Translations under genes and position numbers: made by a program | Notes under the pieces: model-generated | What the model was told of the DNA's origin: nothing | Databases searched by the model: none | Seen by the model: only the letters and a program-made list of their open reading frames with translations | Part shown: positions 1,036-38,596 of the stretch, piece after piece | Numbering within the stretch: position 1 is the first letter of the stretch | How the letters are laid out: every line of letters starts with the position of its first letter | Assembly (NCBI GenBank): GCA_964543985.1 | Contig: CAZJBW010000010.1 | Coordinates: forward strand, 9,684 to 73,683 | Length of the DNA stretch: 64,000 nucleotides | Source of the DNA: an uncultured Pirellulaceae bacterium | GTDB lineage: Bacteria > Planctomycetota > Planctomycetia > Pirellulales > Pirellulaceae | Direction of reading: 5' to 3'

Positions 1036-1644
1036 ATGAAAGAACTACTCAGCGTCGGCGAGGCGCGTAAACTCACAGGCAAATCGGAAAGCACAATCAA
1101 GCGAATGATTCGCGAGATCACGGCCGATGAAAATCATGAAGACCGAGGGCTGATCGAACCTTCACATGAAGAACTTGAGCGGCGTAAGGCCGAAAAAGAA
1201 CCTTATGTCTGGAAGATCACCAAGTCGCTCTTGAAAAAACGATACCCGGTTCATGACCCCGATCAAGACACGGGTCACGGGGGGAGTCATGGAGTAGGGG
1301 ATTCAACCAACAATGACATATCTCAGTCAAAGCTGATTGAACTACTTCAAACACAACTTTCCGGTAAAGACGATCAACTAAAGACGCTTGAGGTTCAGCT
1401 TGATCGTAAGGACGAACAGATATCAAATCTGAATGATCGGATGAGGGAGAGTAATGTACTCATGCAGACGCTTCAAAAACGCCTGGAGTTGCTTCCGGCA
1501 GGTGACGAGACGAACTTCATCCAGGTTAATACAACATCACCCAATACGGACAAAAATACAGCGGATGCCGAAGTAGTTGAAACAAAGAAGAAAACATTCA
1601 TGGATCGGCTCCGCACACCCATTCAAATCTTCCCAAGGAAATGA
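1036..1644 (+). CDS. HTH DNA-binding protein (MerR/excisionase-type N-terminal HTH) with coiled-coil region
   Basis: N-terminus MKELLSVGEARKLTGKSESTIKRMIREI resembles an HTH_17/excisionase-type motif. The central part is heptad-like (LKTLEVQLDRKDEQISNLNDRM). Its stop overlaps the next ATG (ATGA at 1641). Confidence 0.5.
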   Translation: MKELLSVGEARKLTGKSESTIKRMIREITADENHEDRGLIEPSHEELERRKAEKEPYVWKITKSLLKKRYPVHDPDQDTGHGGSHGVGDSTNNDISQSKLIELLQTQLSGKDDQLKTLEVQLDRKDEQISNLNDRMRESNVLMQTLQKRLELLPAGDETNFIQVNTTSPNTDKNTADAEVVETKKKTFMDRLRTPIQIFPRK

Positions 1645-3119
1645 ATCGAGAATTGCCTCACGCATCGGCAAACAATCAACATGAAAGCAAGCCTGAGCCA
1701 GCCTTCGCTGGATTCCAGCGACCAACGGCAAACTTTCTTTTCTGCCCCAATCAATTCTTCGACATCTGTCTCAAAAGTAACTCACGAGGCATGGTGCGGA
1801 TCGTGGCCTATGTTTTGCGGCAAACGATTGGCTGGCTCGACAAAAATGGGATGCCAATCAATCAACAGGTCAAAGTCTCCTATCGCGATCTGATTGAGAA
1901 GGCTGGTGTCAGCAGGGGAGCTATCGGGCCAGCGATCCAACGTGCAGTCGCGATGCGATTTCTTGAGTGCCGAGTTGAAGGATACTCCAAATCGACTGGA
2001 CAATCGAGTCGAACCGCCGAGTACGCGATCCGATGGGATGAAAAAGGGGACTATACAAAGTCATTTGAACACTTCAACGGTTTCTTTACAGGAGAGGGGA
2101 ATCGAACTCAAATTCCAAATGCGTTCTTCGATCAAATCATTTGTACGGAGTCCCTTGCCGTTACAAAAGTCGTTGGAACTGTTCTGCGACACACCGTTGG
2201 TTACGTCAATCAGTTCGGCGGCAGGCGAACGGAAGCCTCTCTTTCATATTCACAAATCCATGGCTATACCAACACGAGCGATAGTTCGACGCTTGCACAA
2301 GCAATTCGAACCGCGATTGATTCAGGTTACATCATTAAAGTCGAAGAAGGGAATTTCAATGCGAGGTCAGACCGGCGAACTTCAGCTTCATATGCGATTC
2401 GATGGCTTGAGACAAACAAGAACGTCGACAACGGTTCAAAAACCAGACCAGAGAGACAACGGTTCAAAAACCAGACCAGCATCGGTTCAAAAACCAGACC
2501 ATTGGAACGGTTCAAAAACCAGACCAGTAATAAAACAACAATTAAAAAAGACATTTCTAAACAACAACTTGTTGCTGCTGAATTCTTACCAGCTGTAAAC
2601 AAGTTGATCGAGGCCGGGTTCAGCTCTGATACGGCAAATGAATTTGTCCAAAAGAGAGGAGTTGCGGTTGTTGAAAGGCAGTTGAAATGGATCGACGCTC
2701 GAAATCCTAAAAATCGTTTGGGTATGCTGCGAAATGCGATAAAAGAAAACTGGGACGAACCGGAAGCGTATCGAGTTAAGCAGAAGATTGCGAAAGCTCG
2801 GACTCGCGACGCCAGGAAAGACGAGTTGCGGTCACTTCAGGATTTTGAGGCAATTCAAAAAAAGAAAGCTCGGATTGAACGAAAGAATCGTTTGTTAACG
2901 GTTTGGGGAAACGCCTCGCTTGCGGATCGAGCTCGATGGATCGAATCAGCAGCCAAAGCTGCCTCGGGAAAAGTGTTACGAGATATTATTCGGCGGCAAG
3001 CCCCAAACATGCAGAAGCCACACTTCCAAGTGCTCGATGAACTCGCACGGGAAATGTCTCTTCCAATGATCGTTTCCAGTGACGAAAACGCTGAATCAAT
3101 TTTGGTGAAATCGAATTAG
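1641..3119 (+). CDS. putative replication initiator protein (two winged-helix-like regions, repeat linker, C-terminal helical domain)
   Basis: Two similar segments (VSYRDLIEKAGVSRGAIGPAIQRAV.. and LSYSQIHGYTNTSDSSTLAQAIRTAI..) resemble wHTH modules of plasmid/phage initiators. It is translationally coupled to the upstream HTH gene, has iteron-like repeats inside it, and a primase lies next door. Confidence 0.5.
   Translation: MNRELPHASANNQHESKPEPAFAGFQRPTANFLFCPNQFFDICLKSNSRGMVRIVAYVLRQTIGWLDKNGMPINQQVKVSYRDLIEKAGVSRGAIGPAIQRAVAMRFLECRVEGYSKSTGQSSRTAEYAIRWDEKGDYTKSFEHFNGFFTGEGNRTQIPNAFFDQIICTESLAVTKVVGTVLRHTVGYVNQFGGRRTEASLSYSQIHGYTNTSDSSTLAQAIRTAIDSGYIIKVEEGNFNARSDRRTSASYAIRWLETNKNVDNGSKTRPERQRFKNQTSIGSKTRPLERFKNQTSNKTTIKKDISKQQLVAAEFLPAVNKLIEAGFSSDTANEFVQKRGVAVVERQLKWIDARNPKNRLGMLRNAIKENWDEPEAYRVKQKIAKARTRDARKDELRSLQDFEAIQKKKARIERKNRLLTVWGNASLADRARWIESAAKAASGKVLRDIIRRQAPNMQKPHFQVLDELAREMSLPMIVSSDENAESILVKSN
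2432..2526 (+). repeat. 4 direct copies of the 19-mer CGGTTCAAAAACCAGACCA (iteron-like)
   Basis: Exact copies at 2432..2450, 2460..2478, 2483..2501 and 2508..2526 (start-to-start spacing 28/23/25 bp), inside the initiator-like CDS. They encode the repeated peptide NGSKTRP / RFKNQTS. Confidence 0.9.
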
Positions 3120-4459: not shown

Positions 4460-5692
4460 TTACGAACTTTCAATTTGTTTCCAATCATCGTCAGTAAAAT
4501 CTTCTGGCTGCTTCCCTTCAAATTGGCCATCAAACATCTGGCTGCTAACAGCAAGGCGGACATTTGTTCTCAATTCAGCCAATCGCCACAACAACTCCTT
4601 GAACCCCGCTTCCCCTTCTGCGTCGCAGTCAGGTAACAACATGACTCGGCTATTCGCAACCTGTTTCGAAAACCTGGAAACCATTTCGATCTGTTGTTGG
4701 GTCGCTTTGTTGCTGCAAAGACCAACAGCGGAAACACCGAGGCAAGCAAGCCGTACCACGTTGTTTGCACTTTCAACAACGACGACACCGTGTTTGGCCA
4801 AAGATTCCTTCACATAAGGCTCTTCGAGTCGTGAAGCCTGTCCGCCATAGAGTTCAGAACCACGGTGATAGCCTGCGACGTAGCGATGTTTATTCGGCTT
4901 CTTACCTTCTGGTTTGTTCTGATTCAGCCACTTTCTCCACTTCGATTCGAAAGTCAAATCACGGCCAGAATAGCTCACCACTTCATCGCGAACGTTCCGC
5001 TGCGTGTAAACAAGATAGTTCTTTCGAAACAACGAACGGCCATTGCCGGGAATCCAGCCAATGCCCCATTGTTTCAACACATCCGGTGTCATCCAGGGAC
5101 GCTTACGAACATACGCCGATGCCTCAGGACTCATTTGCGAAACATCCGTTATCAATTCTTCATGCAGATTGGCCAACTCTCGGGCTGCGTCCTTTTCGTG
5201 ACGCCGCAATGGGACGTTCACAGTAGCTGCTGGGCGATTGGGCTTTTGAGCTGGCGTAGCAATTGGAGTGAAAGCTGCTTGACCGGAAACTTCTTTCGAA
5301 CTCGCCGAAGAAGGGGAGTCAGCCAACCCGTTGATCGAATGCAACGTCGCAACTGCTGATTTGAATTCCTGACCTCTGAGCCGTCCGCCGGTTGGTGGCT
5401 GGTTCGTTTCCAAACCATGTAACAGCGTCAACAAATTACCCTTCGTCTCGCAGGCGTGACAGTAAATTCGTTTTGCAGAATCAAGTTTGACCGACAGGTT
5501 TCCATACTGGCTATCGCTACAGGCCTCAGAGAATATGCATGCCATTCTGTACTCAGTCGTTCCGGGCCGACTAAGCGGCAAACCATAGTGCTGCAGCACC
5601 AGGTCAAGCGGAGTCTGCTCAATCAGTTGGTCGACATCGTTCATCCAACCACGGTTTTTAGAATTCATCAATAAGAAGTAAGTTGAATTCAT
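4460..5692 (-). CDS. DnaG-like primase (CHC2 zinc finger + Toprim domain)
   Basis: Zinc finger: C..C...[19 protein letters not shown]. Toprim-like: [12 protein letters not shown]...[14 protein letters not shown] (E ... DxD). The start may instead be the internal Met at 5644. Confidence 0.75.
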
Positions 5693-5712: not shown

Positions 5713-6603
5713 ATGACAAAAACTTTCAACACTAAAATTGGCGACCGTGATATTCAATTACTGATAGCGATTGACCGTTGTCCATTAACTCCGTCACAGC
5801 TTTGCCACATCAGCAAAACGTTCGAGCGACCTTTCAATGACTCGCACAACGTCAGACGACGCCTTCGAAAACTCGCGGCGGCTGACCTGGTTCAATGCTT
5901 TCCATATACGATTACAGGCGACGGCTATTCTCATCGCTACTACAAACTGACACGCTGCGGGTATCGGTTGCTTTACGGGCCCAAGGTCACACTTCCGAAA
6001 CGAAGATACTTTGAAGCCATCAAACCCGGTCACCATCACCATACGTTTTGCCTTGCCGAGACGATCGTTCACCTTTGCGTGACCGCCCACGAAAACGGTT
6101 GTGAGATCATCTACTTTTCACGTGAGAACAGCGTCAAGCTACAGGCCGATCCATTTACGCTTTACCCAGATTCCGCTTTCGTCGTTAGAAGAAGTGACGG
6201 ACGCACGTTTTCTTTTGTTGTTGAACTGGACAACGGAACTGAACGTGTCAGGTCAAAGCAGGATGTCGAATCAATTGAACGCAAGCTCCGTGGATACGAC
6301 GCCCATCAATCGAAGTACGACAAATTCGATCCAGATCGTTATTTGGTTCTATTTATCACGACTCGCAGCGAGAATCGCCTGCAATACATCATGGACGTCG
6401 CGGCAGACATCATGAAACAACCAAACCGCCGCGTGTTCGTTGGAGCTGAGCTGAATCGACTATTGTCAGTTGATCCGTTTCAAGTTCCCATCTTCGTCGA
6501 TCATCGCGGCTTGAAACGCCAGATGGTTTCAACAGTAGAAACTGACTCAGGTATCAAGACGATGAAGAATCACACCAACCTTTTACGACCGCTGGCGGTT
6601 TAA
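5713..6603 (+). CDS. replication-relaxation family protein (copy 1)
   Basis: N-terminal wHTH pattern DRDIQLLIAIDRCPLTPSQLCHI....VRRRLRKLAAADLV. Later HH.H cluster and PDSAFVV...FVVELDNGTE...LVLFITT, as in Replic_Relax-type proteins. Confidence 0.65.
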   Translation: MTKTFNTKIGDRDIQLLIAIDRCPLTPSQLCHISKTFERPFNDSHNVRRRLRKLAAADLVQCFPYTITGDGYSHRYYKLTRCGYRLLYGPKVTLPKRRYFEAIKPGHHHHTFCLAETIVHLCVTAHENGCEIIYFSRENSVKLQADPFTLYPDSAFVVRRSDGRTFSFVVELDNGTERVRSKQDVESIERKLRGYDAHQSKYDKFDPDRYLVLFITTRSENRLQYIMDVAADIMKQPNRRVFVGAELNRLLSVDPFQVPIFVDHRGLKRQMVSTVETDSGIKTMKNHTNLLRPLAV

Positions 6604-7915: not shown

Positions 7916-10048
7916 ATGTCCGAAGAGGGCGAGAAACTCCATTGGCAATCACTTCCAATGACCTTGCTTAAGTTTCATCCACCAGCAGACAACCAACGCG
8001 GCCCCAAGTTCCTGGAAAGCCTGATCGAAGGCTGGGTGTCATTGTGCGGCCAAGAGGGAATTCGGCTCGGCATCAACAGCAATCATGGACGAATCGTTTT
8101 TGTTGCCGACGTACCTGACAAACGGCAACGTGTTGTCGCGGCTCAGCTGGAAAACGCTTATCCAGGTGGGAAAAGCGAAGTGGTGCATTCGCGATCCAAA
8201 GCTGAACCGCCACATCAACACCGGTCGGTGGGTTGGCTTCGACTATCGCCCGATGTTTATCCGCTGAAGCTTCATCAATCATTCGTCGAAGAACATTCAC
8301 GAGATGCAATGGATCCACTTGAAGGCTTGTTGGAAATCATCAAGTCCGGTCAGTCGGGACGTGTTGGGACGACGCTTTGGCTGGAGCTGAAGCCCCTCAA
8401 GAAAAGGCAAGCTGATCGCGCCAAGCGTAATTCGCGTCTATTGAACGCAAGCTTCCCATTCAAAACGGTCGAGAACTCATTCGAGCGGAACTTTTCCGGC
8501 TCAACTTGGAACCAACGATTCCAACTCTGGCTGATCCGTCGAATTATTCGCTCTACCGCGTCAATTCCAGAACCGGTTGCCGCAAAGCTGGAGCAACATC
8601 TGTTTTCGGCTTTGGTAAGCGTCGAAGTCACCACCGACACACCCAATCCGAAACTCCATCAGCAACGACTTCACGATATCGAATCTGCACTTTGTCTTTT
8701 AACGGGCTTCTCAGCCGTTTTCTTTGTGGAGACCAGACCAAGGGGCAGCTTCCTGCTGACAACGCCTGAGATCGCAACTTTGTGGCATATTCCGACCATT
8801 GAAACCAAAGTCCCGCGACTCGAACGAAGCACGTTTAAAGAACTCGAACCGCCACCGAATTTGCCTCGCCCCGGAGACAGCCCGCACATCGTCACGCTTG
8901 GGCGCGTTTGCTTTCGCAACGAACGGTACAAATTCGGCATGGATCTCGAAGCCCGCCGCCGTCATTTGTACATCATCGGGAAAACCGGAATGGGTAAGTC
9001 GACGCTGCTGCAAAACATCATCGCCGATGACATCGCGGCCGGCAGGGGATTGGCGGTCATTGACCCGCACGGTGACCTGGCTGAAAACACGCTCAACTAC
9101 GTTCCCAAGTTCCGTAAGAACGACATCATCTACTTCGATCCCGCCGATCCGAACTCGATACCGTTCAATCCACTGATGGTTCCGCCCGGTTCAGACAAAA
9201 CGCTTGTCGCCGACGGCGTGCTTTCCGCATTCCAAAAAGTCTTCGGCATGGACGAGTCACAAGCCCCACGGCTGCTACACATTTTCCGCAACTGTTTGTT
9301 GTCGCTGGTCGAGATGCCATCCGCATCATTGATCGACGTTCAACGATTGCTGGTCGACGAGATGTTTCGCAAGTCGGTCATCGCCCGCGTCACGAACCCA
9401 GTCGTTCGCAGTTTCTGGCTTGACGAGTATAGCAAGTGGAAACCACACGACCGCACCGCGTTCATCGCATCGCTTCAAAACAAACTTGGCGCATTCCTGA
9501 CCAATCCAAAACTCCAATACATCCTGGGCGATCCCAAAGCCAAACTGAACCTGCGCAAAGTTATGGACGAAGGCAAAGTCCTGATCGTAAACCTGAGCAA
9601 AGGCCGAGTGGGGGAGAACGCATCCAACTTGCTTGGCGCGCTGATCGTTACATCGCTTCAACTCGCCGCCATGAGCCGTGCCAACATCCCCGAATCCGAC
9701 CGCCGCGACTTCTCAATCATCATCGACGAGTTCCAAAACTTCACCACGCCCTCAATCGCAACATTTTTGTCAGAGGCGCGAAAGTACCGAACGCATCTAA
9801 TTCTCGCTAACCAGTTCACCGAACAAATTCCACCAGAAATTCTCGGAGCAATTGTCGGCAATGTCGGTAATAAAGTAATGTTTCAGCTCGGTGCCACCGA
9901 TGCCGCCATGTTTGAAATATATTTCGCGCAAAATGTCCATTCAACGAATCTAATGGAATTGCCAAGATTTCATGCTTATTGTTCTTTGCAAACCAATTCC
10001 TCGGGATCGCAATTGTTTTCAGTAAAGACCCATCAAATTCAAAAATGA
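7916..10048 (+). CDS. VirD4/TraD/HerA-like P-loop ATPase (copy 1) with ~330-aa unknown N-terminal region
   Basis: Walker A YIIGKTGMGKSTLL and Walker B DFSIIIDEFQNF. AVIDPHGDLA and IPFNPL blocks are shared with the paralog at 30796..32538. Confidence 0.7.
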   Translation: MSEEGEKLHWQSLPMTLLKFHPPADNQRGPKFLESLIEGWVSLCGQEGIRLGINSNHGRIVFVADVPDKRQRVVAAQLENAYPGGKSEVVHSRSKAEPPHQHRSVGWLRLSPDVYPLKLHQSFVEEHSRDAMDPLEGLLEIIKSGQSGRVGTTLWLELKPLKKRQADRAKRNSRLLNASFPFKTVENSFERNFSGSTWNQRFQLWLIRRIIRSTASIPEPVAAKLEQHLFSALVSVEVTTDTPNPKLHQQRLHDIESALCLLTGFSAVFFVETRPRGSFLLTTPEIATLWHIPTIETKVPRLERSTFKELEPPPNLPRPGDSPHIVTLGRVCFRNERYKFGMDLEARRRHLYIIGKTGMGKSTLLQNIIADDIAAGRGLAVIDPHGDLAENTLNYVPKFRKNDIIYFDPADPNSIPFNPLMVPPGSDKTLVADGVLSAFQKVFGMDESQAPRLLHIFRNCLLSLVEMPSASLIDVQRLLVDEMFRKSVIARVTNPVVRSFWLDEYSKWKPHDRTAFIASLQNKLGAFLTNPKLQYILGDPKAKLNLRKVMDEGKVLIVNLSKGRVGENASNLLGALIVTSLQLAAMSRANIPESDRRDFSIIIDEFQNFTTPSIATFLSEARKYRTHLILANQFTEQIPPEILGAIVGNVGNKVMFQLGATDAAMFEIYFAQNVHSTNLMELPRFHAYCSLQTNSSGSQLFSVKTHQIQK

Positions 10049-10051
10049 ACA

Positions 10052-11554
10052 CTACATGAAATAGCGCAGAGAGGATTCAACTGGCGGTTCTTCTCCGAAC
10101 TCGTCAAGGATTCCCCCAACTCGTCGAGCAAATGACAAGGTGACTGGCCATTTCGCGCGAACGTCGGCCGTATTCCAATTCATCCTTGTTAAGTTAAGAA
10201 TATCTCTGACAGCTTCTTCCGGATGGTAGTCACCAAAACATCGAACCTCAAATGGCTGCGGTATGTGAGGTCCGGGATAAGTTCCAAGTGAAGGCATATA
10301 GCCTGACGTATACAGAAATGTTCGATCTGAGTTGACAGTGCAAATGGTCCCCACGTTGGGCGGATACGCTCCAAAGCGTAGCAGCCTAAACGAACTTGGA
10401 ATTAGGGTCACCATGCTTACAATTGGAATTCCCTTAAGAGCTTCCCTAAATCCCGCAATCTCAGCTTCATTGAATTCACTAGTTTTATGAATGATTAGCC
10501 GCAATGGTTCGCCGCCTGTTCGGCTACGGTATTCTTCAAGAACCATCGTACCCAGAAGCATTGCTTGTTGTTCTGTTAATTTAGTATCCCTACGTTGATG
10601 AGGGTCAGCCGGAACGCCTTCGCCACGAATTGCGAAACCTTCTCCCTCACTTGAGAAAGCTTGAGCTAAACTTGAATGAACAATATGCCTTTGGGTCGTC
10701 CTAAAGTGATGAAAACTAATTCCAACGAAGCAGGTTTCGAGCTGGCTAATTGGAAGACGCCACGGCACGCCTCCGGACTTATAGTAAAGGCCAACTGAAA
10801 AATTCCATGCGCGTGTTGCTGCATCCTGATTGTGCTTGGAATCCTCAGTCAATGAGGTTGTTACCAGTTGTATCGGAAGCCTCAAAGATAGGGCCCGAGC
10901 CTTTAGCGCGTGACGTAGGTCACGACGAATGAAATCTTCTTTTGTTTGTTCCACTTCCTCGGCAAGGTCAAAGAGTTCCAGCTGCCGCATTGAAAGTTGT
11001 TTTTCAATCTTTCGGACAGCCTTCTTTTCAGTTCTCGAAAATTGTCGATCAACGTTCCTAGCTTTGAGTGAGACGGACTTGGGCAGACACACCAATACGA
11101 CATCTGGGCGGTTCGTATCCCTCTTTGCCAAAGTTTCCAACGCATTCGCGTATAGATCAATGATTTCTTGAAATTTTGCGAATCGGTCTGGTTTAGTCAT
11201 TCGGTCAGCAAGTTCATCCAACTTACCGCCTGGCAGCAACACGGTACCATTCTCTCCAAATTCTAATGTCTTGTGAAACGCCCCCGGAAACGACGGGAAG
11301 CTTCGGTGAAGTAAGCTTGTGCTTCCGGAAAAAATGATCTTTTTTGAACATCTGATTAGCCAATTTTGAGCAAGTTTGACTTCATTTTCGGGCCCAATCA
11401 AACCAACAAAAATTGCATTTTTGCGAGCTGAGCCGAAGCGAAGATCGAAAGGGCCAGCGACTTCTAGCCCAATTTTCGGATCGGTTTGCTGTGTTGCTCC
11501 GCCAAACTGCAGACTTGGCTGTGGAAGCTCTTCGATAGATAGCTCAATTGTCAT
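10052..11554 (-). CDS. short prokaryotic Argonaute (MID-PIWI, predicted catalytically inactive)
   Basis: PIWI motif WNFSVGLYYKSGGVPWRL and MID-like LRHALKARALSLRLPIQLV. The slicer Asp positions read FVGISF and IIHKTSEF. About 500 aa with no PAZ. The likely start (MTIELS, ATG 11554) overlaps the upstream gene stop by 11 nt. Confidence 0.85.
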   Translation of the reverse strand: MTIELSIEELPQPSLQFGGATQQTDPKIGLEVAGPFDLRFGSARKNAIFVGLIGPENEVKLAQNWLIRCSKKIIFSGSTSLLHRSFPSFPGAFHKTLEFGENGTVLLPGGKLDELADRMTKPDRFAKFQEIIDLYANALETLAKRDTNRPDVVLVCLPKSVSLKARNVDRQFSRTEKKAVRKIEKQLSMRQLELFDLAEEVEQTKEDFIRRDLRHALKARALSLRLPIQLVTTSLTEDSKHNQDAATRAWNFSVGLYYKSGGVPWRLPISQLETCFVGISFHHFRTTQRHIVHSSLAQAFSSEGEGFAIRGEGVPADPHQRRDTKLTEQQAMLLGTMVLEEYRSRTGGEPLRLIIHKTSEFNEAEIAGFREALKGIPIVSMVTLIPSSFRLLRFGAYPPNVGTICTVNSDRTFLYTSGYMPSLGTYPGPHIPQPFEVRCFGDYHPEEAVRDILNLTRMNWNTADVRAKWPVTLSFARRVGGILDEFGEEPPVESSLRYFM

Positions 11555-14366
11555 AGGTGCTATCCTCGTCGTCTTCCAGATCTTCGTCCGATTGTTCAGC
11601 CAATTCGAAGAGCTCTTCTTCAAGATCGTCTAGATCGCCTTGCAAATCCTCAAGAATCTCCGAATCCAGGTTGAATGAGTTAGCTCCAAATGCAACCGTT
11701 GGAGGGCGATCCGACAAGAGAATTGTAGGCGCGAAACCAGCGGACGGATTGTCATCATCGCAACTCAGGGCAAAGACCCCAGTTGCTCCGCTCGCAATCA
11801 TTGAAATCCAAAACGTTACATCTTGGTGAACAGCCTGATTAAAGTCCTTGGCGGCTCGTCGCGTTGAAAGCACATTAATTCTTGCGCGCCCAATGGGCAT
11901 TCCAATTCCGTTACGCGTGAACGTGTAACCAGGTGACAACATAATTGCCCATTCATCTTGAAAATCCATGATGTTGAAGTTCAACGCTTTGTGTTCGTAG
12001 TAGACGACTTCATTTGAATCCTTCTTTGTTCTAGCTTTTACGACAGTACGGGTTGCAGTCCTTGAACGGCCCTTGTAAGTAATCTTGAACTCATTTTCAT
12101 CGGAAGGTTTGGGATAGTGGACTCGCTTTCGACCATAGTCAATCCAGAGTCCGATGGATCGAAGATGCTCAAACATCGCCTCGTTTAGCAACTTCACGAA
12201 AACATTGCGGCCATTGGGCTCCGCGAGTAGGTCGTTAAGAGCAATTTTCGAAATGCCGGATTTTGCGAATGGAAGTTCGACGGACCTAGACATTTCTTGA
12301 AGATTGAAAAGCGAATAGAAATAGCCGTTGGTTATATATCCTCTGGGGACGTTTTGATGATCGGCTTTCTCTTTTAAGCCTCGCATGGAGCGAAACTTTG
12401 TCCTGGCTACCCATACAAAGTCAGGAAGCCCCACAATGCTGAGCATATTGGCGGCAAAGCGATGTATTTCGGTTGATGCCGAAATTGCAGTATTGGTTAT
12501 TTCATCAACAACTTCTGGTCGCGCACGTACAACAACTGTAAAGTACTCATTATCGGAATCCGGGCCGAAATCGACTTCACCGTTGTTGTTAACTGTCTCT
12601 TTCCACATGTCAGACAAGCCGGATCCTTGCCTGTCCATTTGTCCGCCGCCATAAAACAAATCCGAGATCACCGGATTCCGGTAGCCTTTTACTCCACGTC
12701 GATTGTTCTTGATGAGAGTTTCTATAGGTTCGCCGCCAGTTTGCGCCGCAACTTCATCGACCAACCCGCCAGGGCTTATAACGGATACTGAATCTGGGGT
12801 AATGTTTACACGAATAGGTTCATCTTTTCGGTAGTCACGGTGAACTAATGCATTGACGAGCATTTCTTTCAAAGCAAGCGGGTTATACGCTTGGACTTGT
12901 TTCGACAATTCCGCTTTTAGCCGAAACGAAAAATTCACCAAAGAAAGCAAGTCGGTTAGCTCATCCAGTTGCGTCCAGAGGTTTCCCGTTATGTGACGCT
13001 CAACGACATGGTTTCCCGTTTCATCTTCTGGATTTAATTCTGTATCGTCTCCTAGCGTTTTCCTCAACCAATTGGAATGCCCAATAAGCGTTACTTGGAC
13101 TCTTGCATTGGGAACTGCAAATGTAGGATCCTTTCCGAACAACAAGATGCCGGCAAATGTAGGACTAGCGGACTCAGGTTGATTAGAGATTAAATGCAGC
13201 GAGCCTGCCGTTTCCAATACCCAAGTTTCATCAATGAGATTTGGTACCCAGATGTTTAATTTGTCTGCGTATTGCGCAAGCCTCGCCCGCAAAAGTGGAA
13301 TGTCCAAATCGCCAACGGAATTCGATTTACACGGTCGCATGTCCTCAGGAACGGCCAACTCATTCGAAAATGGCGGACGACGTCCCGGAGGTGTCTTGCT
13401 TGAAACCAGCAAGTTCAACAGATCAATCTCGAACAGCTCGTCGAATCCGCGAATGGAAACGGAGTTGAAATTGGAACCAATTGTATTTGCGAGACGTTGC
13501 ACGAGAGGCGAAAGGGAAACCTGATCCGGTTTGTCGCGCGTGCACCAATAAACGCCTTGCGCGAATTTGTTTGTAAACTTCAGATGGTTTTGGAAAATCC
13601 CATCCATGATCGAAGGTTCGTTTCCTCTATATCCAACAACAATGATTGGGCGATCTCGAAGCATCGTTTTCACCGCATCAACAAGAGCTTTATCTAGTTT
13701 TTGCACTTCGTCAGTAAGGTTTCTGTCTGTGTAATGCTCAACCGAACCGTGTAGGAAAACGAGTTGCGGGACTGATGGTGTTGCGCTGAACTGGATCAAA
13801 TCATCCGAAGTCTTGATTTTTACAATATGGTGTGGCTTGTTTTCCAGAGTCGCGGCTTTTTGAACACAGTTATCGAAATTGGTTGTAAGTACAGTTGAAA
13901 TCCAACCTTGATGCAGAATTTTTGCCAATGAGCGATATCCGCGGTTTGGAGGAATCGGCGGCGAAATCAGTCTTTCGAAAAAGTCCCGACGATCACGCTT
14001 TACTCCAAGTAGTTGGTCGATCGCAGTCGGGTACAAGTCCGCTAGGTTTAATGATGGATCGAACCATGGTTTTGCAGCCAACCAGGGCTTGTAGTCAGAC
14101 GGACGAACGGTGGGGTCGTCGAAATGACGACCATTTTCTTTGCACCAAGCCCATTTCGCCGCGCGTTCAACTGTCGCATTGGCGGCTGGAATACCAGAAG
14201 TGATTGAAGCGCCTGCACCGATCAACAAAACTGGGGTCGGGTCATCTTTTAGAAGAGAGCGTAATCGTCCTGCTTCGGCGTGTCGTAGTTCTTTCAGTGT
14301 TTTTCTCGCTTCAAACGATCGCACGGATAAGACCTGCATTTTATGACTAGTATTCCTCGCAGGCAA
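11544..14366 (-). CDS. SIR2-domain protein fused to a Schlafen(AlbA_2)/HATPase_c_4-like module and a C-terminal (putative APAZ) region with an acidic tail
   Basis: SIR2 motifs: LLIGAGASITSGIP, VLTTNFDN, FLHGSVEH. Middle module: ILLFGKDP, LVNALVHRDYRKDEPIRVNITPDSVSVISPGGL, YRNPVISDLF, DRQGSGLSDM. Tail: DLDDLEEELFELAEQSDEDLEDDED. APAZ is inferred only from position next to a short pAgo. Confidence 0.8.
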   Translation of the reverse strand: MPARNTSHKMQVLSVRSFEARKTLKELRHAEAGRLRSLLKDDPTPVLLIGAGASITSGIPAANATVERAAKWAWCKENGRHFDDPTVRPSDYKPWLAAKPWFDPSLNLADLYPTAIDQLLGVKRDRRDFFERLISPPIPPNRGYRSLAKILHQGWISTVLTTNFDNCVQKAATLENKPHHIVKIKTSDDLIQFSATPSVPQLVFLHGSVEHYTDRNLTDEVQKLDKALVDAVKTMLRDRPIIVVGYRGNEPSIMDGIFQNHLKFTNKFAQGVYWCTRDKPDQVSLSPLVQRLANTIGSNFNSVSIRGFDELFEIDLLNLLVSSKTPPGRRPPFSNELAVPEDMRPCKSNSVGDLDIPLLRARLAQYADKLNIWVPNLIDETWVLETAGSLHLISNQPESASPTFAGILLFGKDPTFAVPNARVQVTLIGHSNWLRKTLGDDTELNPEDETGNHVVERHITGNLWTQLDELTDLLSLVNFSFRLKAELSKQVQAYNPLALKEMLVNALVHRDYRKDEPIRVNITPDSVSVISPGGLVDEVAAQTGGEPIETLIKNNRRGVKGYRNPVISDLFYGGGQMDRQGSGLSDMWKETVNNNGEVDFGPDSDNEYFTVVVRARPEVVDEITNTAISASTEIHRFAANMLSIVGLPDFVWVARTKFRSMRGLKEKADHQNVPRGYITNGYFYSLFNLQEMSRSVELPFAKSGISKIALNDLLAEPNGRNVFVKLLNEAMFEHLRSIGLWIDYGRKRVHYPKPSDENEFKITYKGRSRTATRTVVKARTKKDSNEVVYYEHKALNFNIMDFQDEWAIMLSPGYTFTRNGIGMPIGRARINVLSTRRAAKDFNQAVHQDVTFWISMIASGATGVFALSCDDDNPSAGFAPTILLSDRPPTVAFGANSFNLDSEILEDLQGDLDDLEEELFELAEQSDEDLEDDEDSTYDN

Positions 14367-14438
14367 CAGCGTGGGGAAGCGACTGTCAGATCAAAATACC
14401 CTTTTGTGCTAAGAAAGATCTGTCCATTGATCTACTGT

Positions 14439-15914
14439 TCATCGACTTGCCAATTTTGCATTTGATTGTTTACATGTTCGCAAACTGCTCGCGTTGTTTT
14501 GCTCGGGGGATTGTGCAGAGAAAATTCTTTTTGGTGAGAAAAGCAAATTCGAGTTTATCTGTTCTTGAATATGAACTCTCGCATTACCGCGAGAAGTGAA
14601 CTTTTCGGACACATAAATACAGACGAACCCGAACTGCTCATTCCGAGCAAACATGTATGCGGCCCATACGTTTTCTTTCTTGAAGTAAAGGACGGTTCCA
14701 AAGAACGAAGATGTGTCGTCACAAAACCACCCTTGTTCTTCGCTATCGGGAACGACGCATTCACCTGGCACGAAAAAATCGAAATGCTCCTTGTCAATTG
14801 GCGACACGCCGATTGAAACCATTGGCGGGTATTTCTTGATAAAGTCCTTCAACTCAGAACCAAAATTCATCGTGAGCGTTTTCGACACATACGGATGCCA
14901 AGGCACAAGCGAATCGTATTCGACAGCAACATGCCCATTATCGGCCAAATATGACTGAATCGCGTAGTGGAAAAAGTCGTGGGGAACTGGGTTCAGCGCA
15001 TTCGGGTTGTGCATCACAGTGAGACCTTGCCCCCATGATTCAACAAACGGTGGGCATTCCATATTGTAGGCAAACAGCGACGGATCCTTGGCATTCTCAA
15101 GGGGAGTGTAGCATTCACCCCGACGATATACTGAAACTTGATCATTTCCAAAGCCATGCTGAAAACCCATACGCGTGAACTTTCCAGACGTCCCGCTGTT
15201 CGTGAAAATAACGGCACTGATGTACTCTGATTCTGGCTGAACAAAGAAACCTGATGGGATCACCTTTTCTGCCACAGAGTGCGATTCCACTTCATTGGTA
15301 GAAACAACAAGTTCCGCATTCTCATTCCATTGCGCCGTACTTTTACTGCCATACAAGTAACCCATCAATGCCCCGTCCGAAACGGAAAGCGAGTCTTCAT
15401 CGTGAAATGCTTGGATGGCGATAACAAGAGGGATGTTTTTGCAGTGTTCGTGCTCCCAATATTTCTTCTTGAGCTTCGAGAACAAAGGACTGCCAAATCG
15501 GATCGGAAGTTCTTCCGTCACATAGTGCAAAAGCTCCGCCTCATCGAGGTCGCCAATTTTCCGGCCTTTTTCTTTCAAGACACCAGAAGTTGGAGGATTG
15601 ACAGTGGTCGCTTCTACGGCGACTGTTCGCCCATTTCGAGAAATCAAAAAATCCGGCTTGTCATGATCGCGGTTCAGTTGGAATCCCGATCGAGAGAAAT
15701 AGGCGAACAAGTACAGTTCAAAAAACCTCGCGTCGAATCCAGTTGTTTGAAATTGTTCGAGAAAATTCCCATCAGGATCAACAAAGTCTTGGTAAATATT
15801 CTCGAGCATCTCGCGTGAGCAGATAGCACCCGGCTGATCCTTTAGCTGGAGAAAACTGGGATGAAGTTTGGATTCTTCTACGACAGGTTCGAAAAGCTTG
15901 TTTTTTGCCATCAT
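14439..15914 (-). CDS. hypothetical protein, possible PD-(D/E)XK-like nuclease fold; first gene of the pAgo operon
   Basis: Co-directional, 72 bp upstream of the SIR2 gene. The segment FFELYLFAYF...DKPDFLISRNGRTVAVEATTV resembles an E...D...ExK-type core, but the K is not evident. Start taken at MMAKNKLF (15914). Confidence 0.5.
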   Translation of the reverse strand: MMAKNKLFEPVVEESKLHPSFLQLKDQPGAICSREMLENIYQDFVDPDGNFLEQFQTTGFDARFFELYLFAYFSRSGFQLNRDHDKPDFLISRNGRTVAVEATTVNPPTSGVLKEKGRKIGDLDEAELLHYVTEELPIRFGSPLFSKLKKKYWEHEHCKNIPLVIAIQAFHDEDSLSVSDGALMGYLYGSKSTAQWNENAELVVSTNEVESHSVAEKVIPSGFFVQPESEYISAVIFTNSGTSGKFTRMGFQHGFGNDQVSVYRRGECYTPLENAKDPSLFAYNMECPPFVESWGQGLTVMHNPNALNPVPHDFFHYAIQSYLADNGHVAVEYDSLVPWHPYVSKTLTMNFGSELKDFIKKYPPMVSIGVSPIDKEHFDFFVPGECVVPDSEEQGWFCDDTSSFFGTVLYFKKENVWAAYMFARNEQFGFVCIYVSEKFTSRGNARVHIQEQINSNLLFSPKRIFSAQSPEQNNASSLRTCKQSNAKLASR

Positions 15915-16061
15915 GTTCTCAAGTACATGGAATGTGATCTTGATTGACTCTAAAAATAGAAAATAGTTCGGCCCAATCATAGCCAAGTCGCATTTCGCGA
16001 TAGATTACGAAAGAAAAACCCAGTTAGAAACTGGGTTGGGTTCCTTCCCATTGTGCCCTCG

Positions 16062-16868: not shown

Positions 16869-17480
16869 TCACCGGTATTCGCGGATGCTGATACCCTTGT
16901 CTTTGCCAAGCACAATGTGGTCAAGGACGTCGATGCCGATTGTTTTACCGACATCGGTCAGCCGGTCGGTGACCGCGATATCTTCGCGTGATGGTGTCGG
17001 ATCGCCGGACGGATGGTTGTGGACAAGAATGACCGACGACGCGGCGTCTTTGATGGCCTTTCGAAAGACCTCGCGAGGGTGAACCAATGATGCGTCAAGT
17101 GTGCCAACCGTAATCTGATGGGAAGCGATGACTTGGTTTTTTGTATCTAGCGTGACCGTATGAAACTCTTCTTGAAGGCAGTCTGATACCAAGCGAGAGA
17201 AGTGTCGGCGGCAATAGTCAATGGCGTCAGAGCTGCTGGAGATCTTGATGATGGCACGAAAAGCAGTTTTCGATTCCTGAATGCGACGCCCAATCTCGAT
17301 GCTCGCCTGAAGCCGTTCATAGGCTTTGGGAGTCAGGTTTAGTTCCTGACGATGCGCCTGATCAAGTTTTTCCAGCGGAATCTCTTTCAATATCTGCTCT
17401 GCCCGGTCAGAAGAGCGTAGTAATAGTTCAAGTAGTTCTTGATTCGACCTTTGATGGAATTCTCGTGGCTGTTTCGGCAT
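16869..17480 (-). CDS. radC: RadC-like JAB-domain protein
   Basis: JAMM motif ILVHNHPSGDPTPSREDIAVTDRL and a typical RadC length (203 aa). Confidence 0.85.
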   Translation of the reverse strand: MPKQPREFHQRSNQELLELLLRSSDRAEQILKEIPLEKLDQAHRQELNLTPKAYERLQASIEIGRRIQESKTAFRAIIKISSSSDAIDYCRRHFSRLVSDCLQEEFHTVTLDTKNQVIASHQITVGTLDASLVHPREVFRKAIKDAASSVILVHNHPSGDPTPSREDIAVTDRLTDVGKTIGIDVLDHIVLGKDKGISIREYR

Positions 17481-33876: not shown

Positions 33877-34101
33877 AAACTGTTGATAAAAATGGAAACG
33901 CCGAACTTGACTTTTGACGGTTCGGCGTTCTAATTGGGGTATCGCTCTGAAAACGAGTGCCTCCATGTACGGTTAAATCCGCCCGGTGCTTCGGCACTGA
34001 AGATTGATCGCTTGGTTGTAATTCGCCCAAAAGGCCATTTCATTCCGAAGACTGTTACTTTTAATAGTTCTTCGGAATCTTTTTTTCCGCTCTTGGATTT
34101 A

Positions 34102-34992
34102 ATGGCAATCAGGATTGGGCCAATGCCTCTTACCGAACTCGATATGACTGTGCTGAAAACAGTCGCGACGTATTACGTTCTTACCCGTGAACAAGTGCAG
34201 GGCGTTTGTTGCGCCGAACATTCAAGCGGTCGCGGTACGCGCAAACGACTCAGTCGGCTTGGCAAGGCTGGCTACATCGTCAAACATCGCGTTCCAGTGG
34301 CCCTTCCTGGCACAAACGGAGCCGCTCCGGTGTATTACCCCACCAAAAAGGGTTCGGACGCGCTAGCGAGCTATTTTGACGATGAACGCTTTTACGCAAC
34401 CAACACCAAGAACCCACGCGCTGATCGCTTGTCGCATTGGATTGCCTGCAATTCGACCCGAATCTTAGTCGAAAAGGCAATTCAACAACTCCCGCAGGTT
34501 GATTTGATTCGATGGATCAACGAATGGGAAACCGTCAACAAAGACGACACGAAATCAGATCAATTCTGTCTTCACACGCAACTTGTCAAAGATCCCCCGT
34601 TGAGTTGTTCGCCGGATGCTGGATTCATGATTCGCTACCAGGATCAACAAATGGTTTACTACCTAGAACAAGATCGCGCAACATCCAGCCCACGCCAGGT
34701 CGCCGCCAGAAAGCATCGCGGCTACGCCGAATTGTCGAAACAAAACGGTCACAAGAAACACTTTCCAGATCTAACAGTCCCCTACTTTCGCGTTCTGTTC
34801 ATCACGCCAAGCGAAACACGAGCCAAAAAAACGCAACAAGAGATGAAAGATCGAAGTGGAAAAGAACTTTGGCTGATGATGAACGAAAAAGCATTGAACG
34901 AAATCAACTTCTTCACCGGCAATGTTGCTATCGACCACGAAGGTGAAGTTGGGCCACTACTGACGCTTCCTGAGACAACTGGCCAATCCTGA
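34102..34992 (+). CDS. replication-relaxation family protein (copy 2)
   Basis: LDMTVLKTVATYYVLTREQVQGV....GTRKRLSRLGKAGYIV, then PDAGFMI...YYLEQDRAT...RVLFITPSE. Same architecture as 5713..6603 but highly divergent. The start could also be 34123. Confidence 0.65.
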   Translation: MAIRIGPMPLTELDMTVLKTVATYYVLTREQVQGVCCAEHSSGRGTRKRLSRLGKAGYIVKHRVPVALPGTNGAAPVYYPTKKGSDALASYFDDERFYATNTKNPRADRLSHWIACNSTRILVEKAIQQLPQVDLIRWINEWETVNKDDTKSDQFCLHTQLVKDPPLSCSPDAGFMIRYQDQQMVYYLEQDRATSSPRQVAARKHRGYAELSKQNGHKKHFPDLTVPYFRVLFITPSETRAKKTQQEMKDRSGKELWLMMNEKALNEINFFTGNVAIDHEGEVGPLLTLPETTGQS

Positions 34993-36159: not shown

Positions 36160-36374
36160 GCAGGCAAAAGGAAGGAGGTGTCATTCGAATCGACGAGGCG
36201 TATAGCAAACAATGCGTCTTGTCCCGATTAGGAGTCTCCCAGCGGTTTTGGGACAAAATGTTGGATGAGGGGCTCCCCTACACCAACGTTGGACACACTC
36301 GCTGGGTTACCGGCGAAGAGATCATGAACTACTTGAAAAAGTTTGCGCAAACCAAACCGGTTCAGGCAAAGTAG
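36156..36374 (+). CDS. excisionase/AlpA-like small HTH protein (candidate Xis)
   Basis: 72 aa, ATGA-coupled to the upstream gene, ends 5 nt before the integrase ATG. LGVSQRFWDKMLDEGLPYTNVGHTRWVTGEEIMNYL resembles HTH_17/excisionase-type motifs. Confidence 0.5.
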   Translation: MSRQKEGGVIRIDEAYSKQCVLSRLGVSQRFWDKMLDEGLPYTNVGHTRWVTGEEIMNYLKKFAQTKPVQAK

Positions 36375-36378
36375 TTTC

Positions 36379-37926
36379 ATGGCTCGCCCACCAGAAATTG
36401 GCAACGTCAAGTTGTATCCCGATCGGCCATTGCGCGATTCTGACAAAAACGGTTTTGTGCTGAAGTTCTATTGCCCCATTCAAGGCAAACGGATTCGCAA
36501 AAACGCTGGAACGCGCGATCGCCGGGAGGCACGAAAAATCGTTCGGGAATGCAGCACTCGACTTACAAACGGAGAGTACGTTGCGTCTGGCGGGTTGATA
36601 TCCGCTGAACAGGAGAAGGTTCGAAAAGCGATCGAACAAGTCGTACCACAGGGCGTTTTTTCAGGCGTCGAAACAGATTCTGGTCGTTCTTGGGATGCCT
36701 GCAAGGATCAGTATTTAGCGTACAAGAAGAAACGAGTCCGGGATTCATCATATGCTGATATCACGTCGCGACTCGACCTTGCTGAGCGAATTATTGTAGG
36801 CTATCGCGAAGACAATGGACTTCAAGGCGTCGGGTCAATTCAAGAGAATTGTACGCTATCGGCGATGGAATACCTTCAGGACAGACTGCTCGCCGGAGAT
36901 GAATGCCGCTATGACTACCGCTCTCCGATGACTGTTAACACGGCGATGGGAGCAATCATGGCATTCGTTCGTTATTGTGCCCGCCACGAATGGATCGACA
37001 AGGTGCCGATCGTCGATCGCTTGGAAGTTGACAACCCGATGAAAGGGCGCCCGATTTCGGAATCGGAGTATGAAGCGATGCTTAAAGCTACGCCCAAAGT
37101 CGTCGGAGAATCGGCAACTGACTCCTGGCGCTTTGTACTCAGGATCATTTGGACAACTGCTTTTCGAGTGGGCGACGTGATGTCGTTCTCATGGGACGAC
37201 GAAACCGAGATCCACCCGCTTTGGAAAGACGATCGCCGTGAACATCCGACAATTGCCATTCCAACGAAACAAAAGAACAGGAAGAAGCAAGAGATCCCCA
37301 TGTTGCCCGAATTGGAGCGGCTTCTGGTTTCAATTCCACAGTCGCACAGGACAGGGTGGATTGCCAATCCTCGGCCGCTGGATTCGCAAAACGCTCTTGT
37401 CAGGCGTCCAACTCGCAAGCAACTCACGAAGTTAAAGAAGAGCAGTTCAAATACGAAAATCGCAGAGATCTACGGCGTAAGCGAAGCAGCCGTCCGAAAA
37501 TGGCTTCTAAATCCAAACTCGCTAAACCAACGTTCGTCGACAATCTCACAACCACCCAATCTCATTCAACGTCTGACGAAGGAACGAGTCGGACGTGTTA
37601 TCGCTCTGATTGGAAAGGAGGCTGACATTGTCGTTCAAGACCAAGATGTCGATCAACGAAAACGACTGAAGTATGCTTCCGCTCACGACATTCGCCGTGG
37701 CTGCGCACAGCGTTTGATCAACCAAGGCGTTTCCGCTGAATCGCTGAAACTAATCTTACGTCATGCAGATTTCGCGACCACCGAAAAATTTTATGGGGCC
37801 GTAAAAAGCGTCCAGTCAGCATCGTCCGAAATTCGAAAACTGATTTCGGCAGTTCCGGACAAACAAGCCCCCGATCTAAGCGCGGCAGAAGTCGCAAAAC
37901 TTCGTCAGCTACTATCTCAGATATAA
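36379..37926 (+). CDS. int: tyrosine recombinase / phage-type integrase (with internal HTH-like insertion)
   Basis: Catalytic-region motifs TAFRVGDVMSFSW (R), HDIRRGCAQRL (HxxR) and LRHADFATTEKFY (H..Y). Adjacent to the tRNA 3' end. Confidence 0.85.
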   Translation: MARPPEIGNVKLYPDRPLRDSDKNGFVLKFYCPIQGKRIRKNAGTRDRREARKIVRECSTRLTNGEYVASGGLISAEQEKVRKAIEQVVPQGVFSGVETDSGRSWDACKDQYLAYKKKRVRDSSYADITSRLDLAERIIVGYREDNGLQGVGSIQENCTLSAMEYLQDRLLAGDECRYDYRSPMTVNTAMGAIMAFVRYCARHEWIDKVPIVDRLEVDNPMKGRPISESEYEAMLKATPKVVGESATDSWRFVLRIIWTTAFRVGDVMSFSWDDETEIHPLWKDDRREHPTIAIPTKQKNRKKQEIPMLPELERLLVSIPQSHRTGWIANPRPLDSQNALVRRPTRKQLTKLKKSSSNTKIAEIYGVSEAAVRKWLLNPNSLNQRSSTISQPPNLIQRLTKERVGRVIALIGKEADIVVQDQDVDQRKRLKYASAHDIRRGCAQRLINQGVSAESLKLILRHADFATTEKFYGAVKSVQSASSEIRKLISAVPDKQAPDLSAAEVAKLRQLLSQI

Positions 37927-38501: not shown

Positions 38502-38525
38502 ATTAGTGGGGGGATTAGTGGGGGG
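38502..38525 (+). repeat. tandem duplication ATTAGTGGGGGG x2
   Basis: Exact 12-mers at 38502..38513 and 38514..38525, about 70 nt beyond the tRNA 3' end on the element side. Confidence 0.9.
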
Positions 38526-38549
38526 ACTTCATGTTGCAGTCAGCGCACG

Positions 38550-38582: not shown

Positions 38583-38596
38583 GCTTGTTCAAAAAG

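Follow-up and report, generated by a model that had tools for sequence, protein, structure and literature searches.

Three co-directional genes occupy positions 10052-15914 on the minus strand of a 64,000-nucleotide stretch of contig CAZJBW010000010.1 (the whole of which is called the window here). A preliminary description of this DNA treated them as a single SPARSA-like operon, in which a short prokaryotic Argonaute (pAgo) and a SIR2-containing partner are accompanied by an extra upstream gene. Our analyses favour a different division of the locus. We regard it as likely that positions 10052-14366 form a self-contained, two-gene abortive-infection module of the S2B group, that positions 14439-15914 hold a separate defence gene of the PD-T7-1 family, and that both are carried as cargo by a probable integrative mobilisable element. 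The pAgo partner is a 940-amino-acid (aa) protein composed of a SIR2 domain, a GHKL ATPase (HATPase_c_4), an APAZ domain and an acidic tail. The SIR2-GHKL-APAZ/pAgo type is already catalogued and uncharacterised, and the window locus is a new member of it. Useful additions made here are the S2B placement, the RK-type pocket of the pAgo, the recognition that SIR2 stands in the place of Schlafen, and the separation of the upstream gene from the pAgo pair.

The genes and junctions of the locus are listed below.

10052..11554, minus strand: short pAgo gene, 500 aa, MID-PIWI, from an internal ATG at 11554 of the open reading frame (ORF) 10052-11623
11544..11554, minus strand: overlap of the partner stop and the pAgo start, 11 nucleotides (nt), read from the sequence
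11544..14366, minus strand: SIR2-GHKL-APAZ partner gene, 940 aa from TTG at 14366, or 931 aa from ATG at 14339
14367..14438, minus strand: spacer separating the PD-T7-1-like gene from the pAgo operon, 72 nt when the partner starts at TTG 14366 and 99 nt when it starts at ATG 14339
14439..15914, minus strand: PD-T7-1/PD-T7-5-family gene by profile matches, 491 aa, from an ATG at 15914 in ORF 14439-15986
10046..10054: convergent stops of a coupling-protein-like ATPase gene (plus strand) and the pAgo gene (minus strand)

All three ORFs have hundreds of full-length homologues and strong profile matches, and therefore are not chance reading frames. Much of the layout first described was recovered unchanged, including the shared orientation of the three minus-strand genes in the ORF list, the presence of every quoted peptide motif at its assigned place, the 11-nt overlap of the last two genes, and the 3 nt that separate the pAgo stop (TAG, 10054-10052) from the stop of the plus-strand ATPase gene (TGA, 10046-10048). 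The pAgo ATG (11554-11552) lies within ACCTATGACAATTGA, the TGA of the partner gene is at 11546-11544, and a GAGGA sequence is located 9 nt 5' of the pAgo ATG. The reported 72-bp gap between the first two genes is correct for the TTG start. The public gene call for the partner, made on an identical contig of metagenomic origin, instead begins at ATG 14339 to give 931 aa, and conservation in the homologue alignment first appears near residue 29. The start is thus TTG 14366 or ATG 14339, and the intergenic gap is therefore 72-99 nt. For the upstream protein, the public copy begins at the second ATG (15911) and contains 490 aa.

The short pAgo and its closest relatives

The pAgo comprises only MID and PIWI domains, and its length of 500 aa falls in the range typical of short pAgos, which contain about 450-510 aa and lack N and PAZ domains. 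Residues 6-500 match positions 2-455 of the 455-position PADLOC model pAgo_I (PDLC02376) with an E-value of 3.3e-141, and residues 10-497 align with residues 8-482 of the solved short pAgo 9jsb_A in a phmmer search of the PDB. These full-length matches bear out the initial identification of the last gene as encoding a MID-PIWI short pAgo. The same PDB search ranks the solved complexes as follows, with the E-value for the pAgo given last.

9om4_B, SPARHA: 1.7e-63
9jsb, 9qbp and 9qbl, SPARDA: 8e-47 to 3e-42
Several SPARTA chains: about 2e-37
8in8_C, SPARSA (GsSir2/Ago): 2e-19

Judged by sequence similarity, the pAgo and the APAZ domain of its partner have their nearest relatives in the nuclease-associated S2B systems (SPARHA, SPARDA) rather than in canonical SPARSA. 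The label 'SPARSA-like' consequently had to be abandoned, given the difference between 1.7e-63 for SPARHA and 2e-19 for GsSir2/Ago, and given that the APAZ domain matches only nuclease- and TIR-type models. The locus has the features of the SIR2 subgroup of S2B, namely a pAgo and APAZ nearest to nuclease-associated (DREN, HNH, Mrr) systems together with SIR2 as the effector.

Conservation within the pAgo family was evaluated using an alignment of 38 sequences, which includes the window protein and 37 pAgos from related loci. Motifs noted previously are located at residues 257-267 (YYKSGGVPWRL), 214-218 (RHALK), 227-229 (PIQ), 278-281 (GISF) and 356-359 (HKTS). Two regions of the protein are of particular functional relevance.

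10778..10915, minus strand: predicted MID pocket for the 5'-phosphate end of the guide, RK type, formed by R214, K218, Q229, T232, N251 and K259
10481..10717, minus strand: PIWI segment with two checked slicer positions, S280 (in GISF) and T358 (in HKTS), both non-acidic

The pocket residues R214, K218, Q229, T232 and N251 are invariant (38/38), and K259 is present in 37 of the 38 proteins, whereas position 215 is His in just 22. The spacing R-x3-K-x10-Q is that of Y463/K467/Q478 in RsAgo, whose MID pocket also includes K506 (PMC6299218). Because R214-x3-K218-x10-Q229 is invariant and has the RsAgo spacing, and because H215 is variable, the pocket is predicted to be of the RK type, like that of SPARDA pAgo, rather than the HK type proposed initially. 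At the two slicer positions, Ser280 is found in 37 of the 38 sequences and Thr358 in every one, and the surrounding GISF and HKTS stretches correspond in the alignment to VGISFH and HKTtEF in the SPARHA pAgo 9om4_B. Since S280 and T358 replace the slicer Asp residues throughout the family, the pAgo should be nuclease-dead, in agreement with the earlier reading. This prediction is drawn from two positions of the catalytic DEDX tetrad, those of the slicer Asp residues.

Architecture of the SIR2-GHKL-APAZ partner

Two PADLOC models describe the partner at full length, namely Aga_SIR2-PNTD1-PNTD2 (PDLC02402; 1253 bits, with residues 32-934 matching positions 2-873 of 876) and Aga_SIR2-Kinase-PNTD1-PNTD2 (1083 bits). 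Motif conservation was assessed in an alignment of 23 homologues, and four regions can be distinguished.

13401..14285, minus strand: SIR2 domain, about residues 28-322, with GAGAS (50-54), TTNFD (161-165) and LHGS (205-208)
12507..13355, minus strand: linker and GHKL (Bergerat-fold) ATPase module, about residues 338-620
11667..12461, minus strand: APAZ domain, about residues 636-900, a pAgo-docking module resembling N/L1/L2
11547..11681, minus strand: acidic C-terminal tail, residues 896-940, in which 21 of 45 residues are Asp or Glu

The SIR2 domain is recognized by Pfam SIR2_2 (1.9e-12, residues 158-280) and, over residues 49-292, by similarity to GsSir2 chain 8in8_B (3.6e-10, PDB phmmer). 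Its fold in an AlphaFold2 (AF2) model likewise resembles that of SPARSA SIR2 when compared by Foldseek. Residues N163, D165 and H206 align with N142, D144 and H186 of GsSir2, and N163, F164, D165, H206, G207 and S208 are invariant in the 23 homologues. The middle gene thus has the intact SIR2 NADase motifs that were attributed to it, with Asn, Asp and His conserved. In defence NADases, the Asn, Asp and His residues of SIR2 have a catalytic role.

The GHKL module carries the motifs E501-x3-N505, SPGG (531-534), KGYRNP (560-565) and GSGL (581-584). All of these are invariant in the alignment, as are GGGQMD and the extended motif E501-x3-N505-A-x-x-H-R-D-Y. Pfam HATPase_c_4 (PF13749) matches residues 516-612 of the window protein (5e-08) and is detected in 23/23 members. 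Residues 462-592 also resemble 3lmm, which is an AlbA_2 and GHKL protein, both in sequence (1.6e-07) and in fold (5e-9).

That the C-terminal ~300 aa of the middle gene form an APAZ domain, as had been suggested, is supported by matches in sequence as well as in fold. Residues 636-931 align with residues 129-426 of the HNH-APAZ chain 9om4_A of SPARHA (5e-08), and phmmer also detects the DUF4365-APAZ chains 9qbl/9qbq/9qbp and the DREN-APAZ chain 9jsb_D. Among PADLOC models, Aga_REase-PNTD1-PNTD2 matches over residues 635-871 (7e-28). The APAZ part matches solely REase-, HNH- and TIR-type APAZ models, and the canonical SIR2-APAZ models of PADLOC match residues 47-312 alone, which correspond to the SIR2 part. 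When the AF2 model was compared with the PDB using Foldseek, the matches were SPARSA SIR2-APAZ chains, the APAZ-only chains of SPARDA and SPARHA (template modelling (TM) scores of 0.65-0.75 for the APAZ fold), and 3lmm. The acidic tail is present in all 23 homologues (alignment columns 900-969).

The region between SIR2 and APAZ deserves closer attention, as an older catalogue describes the family as 'SIR2_1 fused with Schlafen' plus APAZ (PMC6299218). The Schlafen domain SLFN_AlbA_2 (PF04326) is matched by 0/23 family members in Pfam searches, even at E<=5, and the invariant residues of 323-480 include neither a conserved E-x4-(D/E)-x-K motif nor a SAFAN-like one. When 1.84 billion representative proteins were searched with partner residues 330-630, stand-alone proteins of 400-590 aa containing SLFN_AlbA_2 and HATPase_c_4 were recovered. 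Their positions ~150-400 align with residues ~338-620 of the partner, and their SLFN_AlbA_2 domain, located by Pfam at ~15-145, lies upstream of that alignment. Similarly, phrog_12156, the profile of a protein resembling Schlafen-ATPase ('Schlatpase') proteins, matches only residues 394-591, with its positions 199-376 of 485. A Schlafen nuclease in the middle of the partner was therefore rejected as a candidate, because none of the 23 members has a Pfam match to SLFN_AlbA_2 at E<=5 and homology extends solely to the portion that follows AlbA_2.

A comparison with RzAgo, an Argonaute associated with Schlafen (SLFN-pAgo), clarifies what takes the place of this domain. In RzAgo, the SLFN domain spans residues 1-142 and the whole Schlatpase spans residues 1-442, and E314 and N318 coordinate the ATP gamma-phosphate and Mg2+ (bioRxiv 10.64898/2026.05.29.728809). 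E501 and N505 of the partner correspond to these two residues with an offset of 187, and therefore partner residues 330-630 are collinear with the ATPase half of RzAgo (143-442), with SIR2 replacing SLFN. Judged from these alignments, the SIR2 domain (about residues 28-322) occupies the position held by the Schlafen RNase in Schlatpase proteins, and the module is SIR2-GHKL-APAZ rather than SIR2-Schlafen-APAZ in the nuclease sense. The PADLOC name 'SIR2-Kinase-PNTD1-PNTD2' is consistent with an ATPase half that carries SIR2 in place of SLFN. This assignment corrects what is likely a mislabelling of the partner family as 'Schlafen'.

The partner architecture had been regarded as a point of difference from published systems. 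However, full-length PADLOC models exist and three papers list the type. It appears in Ryazansky 2018 (PMC6299218) as og_40 and in APAZ group IIb with the 'SIR2+Schlafen+APAZ' type, in Koopal 2022 (PMC9097488) as 'DHS-like-APAZ', and in bioRxiv 10.1101/2023.06.08.544223 as 'S2B ... subgroup of SIR2 effectors'. Compared with other S2B SIR2-effector systems (Aga_SIR2-PNTD1-PNTD2 or Aga_SIR2-Kinase-PNTD1-PNTD2 with pAgo_I), the window locus has the same domain order, gene order and 11-nt overlap, and differs in sequence divergence, the probably planctomycete host lineage, the mobile-element setting and the PD-T7-1-like neighbour.

More distant systems share some of these components. SPARSA (GsSir2/Ago, S1A/S1B) also places SIR2 motifs N-terminal to APAZ, includes a nuclease-dead short pAgo, uses an effector-first operon, and presumably yields the same output, NAD+ depletion. 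The window partner differs from SPARSA by ~290 extra residues (linker and GHKL) between SIR2 and APAZ and by its acidic C-terminal tail; its 940 aa exceed the approximately 520-590 aa of the two-domain SPARSA partner. The pAgo and APAZ rank by similarity with S2B rather than the S1 clade, and the MID pocket is of the RK instead of the HK type. SPARHA and SPARDA, which employ HNH-APAZ or DREN-APAZ, provide the closest pAgo and APAZ and the same RK-type pocket. By analogy, they likely have in common with the window system an RNA-guided, DNA-sensing mechanism that is activated by oligomerisation, whereas in the window system the predicted effector is not a nuclease but a SIR2 NADase accompanied by an ATPase module. 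RzAgo shares the GHKL HATPase_c_4 domain and its E-x3-N ATP/Mg site, which in both cases lie between an N-terminal effector and an Argonaute-type sensor. In the window system, SLFN_AlbA_2 is absent, SIR2 is present instead, and the sensor is split between APAZ and the short pAgo, whereas RzAgo is a fusion to a long-B pAgo.

The two-gene unit and the PD-T7-1-like neighbour

A genome scan using one genome per species identified 41 loci related to the partner, in 39 of which a short pAgo with 40-74% identity to the window pAgo is encoded directly downstream. One of the two exceptions (L041) is a 1.9-kb contig fragment that ends within the partner gene, and the other (L039) is a partial match to the partner with no pAgo match. 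Co-occurrence of the two genes in other genomes, which the earlier interpretation depended on, is thus well documented. The -11 overlap offset recurs in about 30 of the 39 loci, with an offset of -4 in three, and the 11-nt stop/start overlap implies that translation of the two genes would be coupled. When flanking ORFs were compared all against all, no other ORF family recurred in more than 4 of the 39 loci within 5 kb, and the APAZ protein has been described as the sole specific pAgo partner (PMC9097488).

The partner family includes >540 full-length homologues at E<=1e-10, most of which are from Alphaproteobacteria, and partner identity to this alphaproteobacterial bulk is 50-53%. The nearest named relative is from Rhodopirellula maiorica, the partner being 60% and the pAgo 74% identical. 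This species and members of Bradyrhizobium, Mesorhizobium and Sphingomonas are among the relatives with the same gene order. Plasmids in PLSDB yielded one relative only, which is partial (58%) and 34% identical. The S2B SIR2 subgroup is widespread, with dozens of named Alphaproteobacteria represented among its full-length members. It is the sole short-pAgo partner type with an apparently competent GHKL ATPase between effector and APAZ. Although the window instance taken by itself contributes little more than a new host context, probably that of a planctomycete, this locus or its relatives would be well suited to asking whether ATP controls Argonaute-triggered NAD+ depletion.

Two further observations were made among these relatives. 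Enhydrobacter aerosaccus ATCC 27094 (L023), which belongs to the species of the solved EaeSPARDA structure, also has a SIR2-GHKL-APAZ/pAgo pair, such that one genome can hold two different S2B systems. In addition, five distant SIR2-GHKL-APAZ relatives (P0258, P0261, P0266, P0296 and P0308) contain 1100-1270 aa, including ~220-390 extra N-terminal residues. In four of them this segment corresponds to a PNP_UDP_1 phosphorylase, an endonuclease-type effector, an LmuA-like domain or a PDC-M54A-like domain, and that of P0261 has no PADLOC model match. These four would be short-pAgo partners equipped with two effectors.

The gene upstream of the pair belongs to a different defence family. Its product matches the PADLOC model for PD-T7-1 (PDLC04073) with an E-value of 8.4e-125, with residues 5-350 spanning positions 108-448 of 452, and also matches PD-T7-5 (PDLC04110; 1.9e-47) and phrog_8571 (4.9e-83); no Pfam or NCBIfam match was found. 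More than 1190 homologues have the same full-length architecture, and E66, P87-D88 and E101-A-T-T are invariant in the family. The AF2 model is of good quality, with a predicted local distance difference test (pLDDT) value of 85.8 and a predicted TM score (pTM) of 0.84. Foldseek returned no PDB match for it at E<=0.001, and short local matches to Hjc resolvases are non-significant (E 0.4-0.9). The protein may have a PD-(D/E)xK nuclease core. PD-T7-1 and PD-T7-5 were each cloned as one coding sequence, protected Escherichia coli and are annotated as nucleases (PMC9519451, Table S2), and a review places both among PD-(D/E)xK systems. The window protein shares with these systems (Vassallo 2022) the same ~340-aa core, the E...PD...E-x-T acidic motif that a PD-(D/E)xK-like nuclease would be expected to have, a single-gene organisation as judged by genomic context, and the mobile-element location. 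It differs in having no counterpart to the first ~107 positions in the profile of E. coli PD-T7-1, and in carrying a conserved extra C-terminal domain (~351-468) that is typical of its subfamily and absent from the PD-T7-1/PD-T7-5 profiles.

No PD-T7-1-like homologue was found within +-9 kb at any of the 41 related pAgo loci. The closest relatives of the pAgo pair instead have an insertion sequence (IS) element or an unrelated gene upstream, and the closest relatives of the PD-T7-1-like gene (L045-L048) stand alone in other mobile elements. Because the upstream family is absent from the 41 loci and its close relatives are solitary, the pAgo system does not constitute a three-gene operon, and the upstream gene is a separate single-gene defence rather than a component of the pAgo system. 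Its initial classification as an extra gene of the pAgo operon is accordingly withdrawn, and the case warns that defence genes lying next to each other on mobile elements should not be taken for additional operon components.

Predicted mechanism, alternatives and probable mobile-element setting

The architecture of the module, viewed together with its better studied relatives, suggests how it might function. The pAgo and its partner would be synthesised in a fixed (1:1) ratio as a consequence of the conserved stop/start overlap evident in the sequence. As in the SPARDA, SPARHA and SPARTA structures, the two proteins are expected to form a heterodimer in which APAZ completes the pAgo to yield a bilobed sensor resembling a long Argonaute. 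The RK-type MID pocket would hold a small 5'-phosphorylated guide, probably RNA, as is seen for these S2 relatives, and the PIWI domain, which lacks Asp at both slicer positions checked, is predicted to lack cutting ability. [quoted passage not shown] Pairing of the guide with invader DNA might then expel the tail and drive oligomerisation. The GHKL module, which has an intact Glu/Asn ATP-Mg site, may add an ATP-dependent dimerisation step that joins SIR2 domains, by comparison with RzAgo. Finally, the SIR2 domain (Asn163, Asp165, His206) would hydrolyse NAD+ and thereby stop growth of the invaded cell, as in SPARSA and other SIR2 defence systems.

A more adventurous proposal, which we advance only tentatively and consider rather unlikely, is that the partner represents a Schlatpase chassis equipped with a SIR2 NADase in place of the Schlafen RNase, and that binding or hydrolysis of ATP at E501/N505 serves, through dimerisation of the partner, as a second obligatory checkpoint for pAgo-triggered NAD+ depletion, which would make the GHKL module more than a passive spacer. 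If this were true, killing would be coupled to the energy state of the cell or could be reset after false alarms. The system would also be the first ATP-gated short-pAgo system, and would reflect an effector swap between the Schlafen-Argonaute and short-Argonaute lineages.

Several points weigh against our interpretation of the locus as a whole. Membership in S2B was judged by ranking similarities rather than from a phylogenetic tree. For the partner, the AF2 model is of moderate quality (pLDDT 71.6, pTM 0.43). The NADase output, the type of guide and the ATP dependence rest on analogy, and the role of the SPARTA tail is not automatically transferable, as the tail is said to be absent from SPARSA. 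Full-text searches of the literature found no experimental study of the subtype. Neither a terminator nor a promoter is recognisable in the spacer of 72-99 nt, and co-transcription of the PD-T7-1-like gene with the pAgo pair is possible, as is functional cross-talk between them in this element. Lastly, the boundaries of the mobile element were not found, and no second attachment (att) copy is present in the window.

Three other explanations were considered, two of which concern the partner protein. It is improbable that the locus is a canonical SPARSA system of the S1B group that works like GsSir2/Ago, with the extra partner sequence acting as a passive linker. The intact SIR2 motifs and the resemblance of the SIR2 domain to GsSir2 (3.6e-10) agree with such a system, and the top whole-chain Foldseek matches of the partner are indeed SPARSA SIR2-APAZ chains (8y80_E, 8e-15). 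However, the pAgo is much nearer to SPARHA, SPARDA and SPARTA than to GsAgo, the canonical SIR2-APAZ models leave the APAZ part to REase- and TIR-type models, the supposed linker has a GHKL fold that is conserved in all members and the residues of its ATP site are invariant, and the partner has an acidic tail, which SPARSA lacks according to the SPARTA paper. Canonical SPARSA was thus rejected from the similarity ranking in combination with the partner architecture. Even less credible, to the point of being a very slight prospect, is a Schlafen-type RNase effector in the middle module, as in RzAgo, with SIR2 serving only as an NAD sensor or scaffold. The label given to the family in older catalogues (PMC6299218) and the homology of the middle module to the ATPase half of Schlatpase proteins could be taken in this sense, but SLFN_AlbA_2 is missing from every member, the alignment with true Schlatpases starts after the AlbA_2 domain, neither nuclease motif is conserved in residues 323-480, and the predicted catalytic residues of SIR2 are invariant.

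The remaining explanation concerns gene content, and proposes a three-gene system in which, for this lineage, the PD-T7-1-like nuclease assists the pAgo module functionally or provides it with a second effector. We judge this to be quite improbable. In its favour, the three genes are co-directional, the short spacer has no recognisable terminator, a terminator-like hairpin (16037-16017) lies upstream of the trio, and all three genes have lower GC content (0.46-0.467) than their flanks. Consensus scans found no promoter or terminator match inside the spacer (14367-14438); the nearest promoter-like match starts at 14366, at the TTG start codon, and the nearest hairpin (14595-14576) is within the upstream gene. 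Because promoter and terminator site counts in the region are not above those of shuffled sequence, these scans carry no weight. Against a three-gene system, a PD-T7-1-like homologue occurs at 0/41 related loci, the nearest pAgo pairs are preceded by an IS element or an unrelated gene, and the closest relatives of the upstream gene are solitary in other mobile elements. Moreover, a single cloned coding sequence was enough to protect E. coli in the case of both PD-T7-1 and PD-T7-5.

Both defence units are probably cargo of an integrative mobilisable element, to which the following features of the window are relevant.

5713-6603: Replic_Relax gene
7916-10048, plus strand: coupling-protein-like ATPase with DUF87, TrwB_AAD_bind and TraG-D_C matches
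16869-17480: RadC
33934-34992: second Replic_Relax gene
36343-37926, plus strand: tyrosine integrase, adjoining the tRNA-Arg 3' end
38596-38670, minus strand: tRNA-Arg(TCG), followed by the housekeeping gene yebC

ParE is also encoded on the source contig, and the tRNA is the sole Rfam match. The integrase/tRNA-Arg junction (36343-38670) is probably one end of the element. A second copy of the tRNA-Arg 3' end was not found in the window, either among repeats of >=16 nt or with a 23-mer allowing 3 mismatches. The proposed carriage of the locus by a mobile element is plausible from gene content, though the boundaries of the element could not be located. GC content is 0.46-0.467 over positions 10001-16000, which hold the three defence genes, versus 0.50-0.52 in the adjacent 2-kb bins, and this difference agrees with defence cargo on an integrative mobilisable element and suggests that the cargo was acquired separately from the element backbone.

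Other features of the element may merit attention. The two Replic_Relax (replication-relaxation) genes are ~28 kb apart and may indicate two tandem elements or a duplicated module. Within the plus-strand ORF at 1641-3119, positions 2430-2536 hold four direct copies of a sequence of ~22 nt (AACGGTTCAAAAACCAGACCAG) that are spaced 23-28 nt apart, and these might serve the element as iterons or as a protein-binding array of another kind. The minus-strand gene at 4460-5692 encodes a 410-aa protein that has no Pfam match and matches weakly (~4e-10) the N-terminal part of the PADLOC model RT_UG29 and an RTasDnaG-like model; it is a candidate for a primase-like protein encoded by the element. The ATPase encoded at 7916-10048 also matches PADLOC mad8 (2.7e-20) and phrog_5156 (3.9e-50), such that the term 'VirD4-like' applied to it previously is only approximate.

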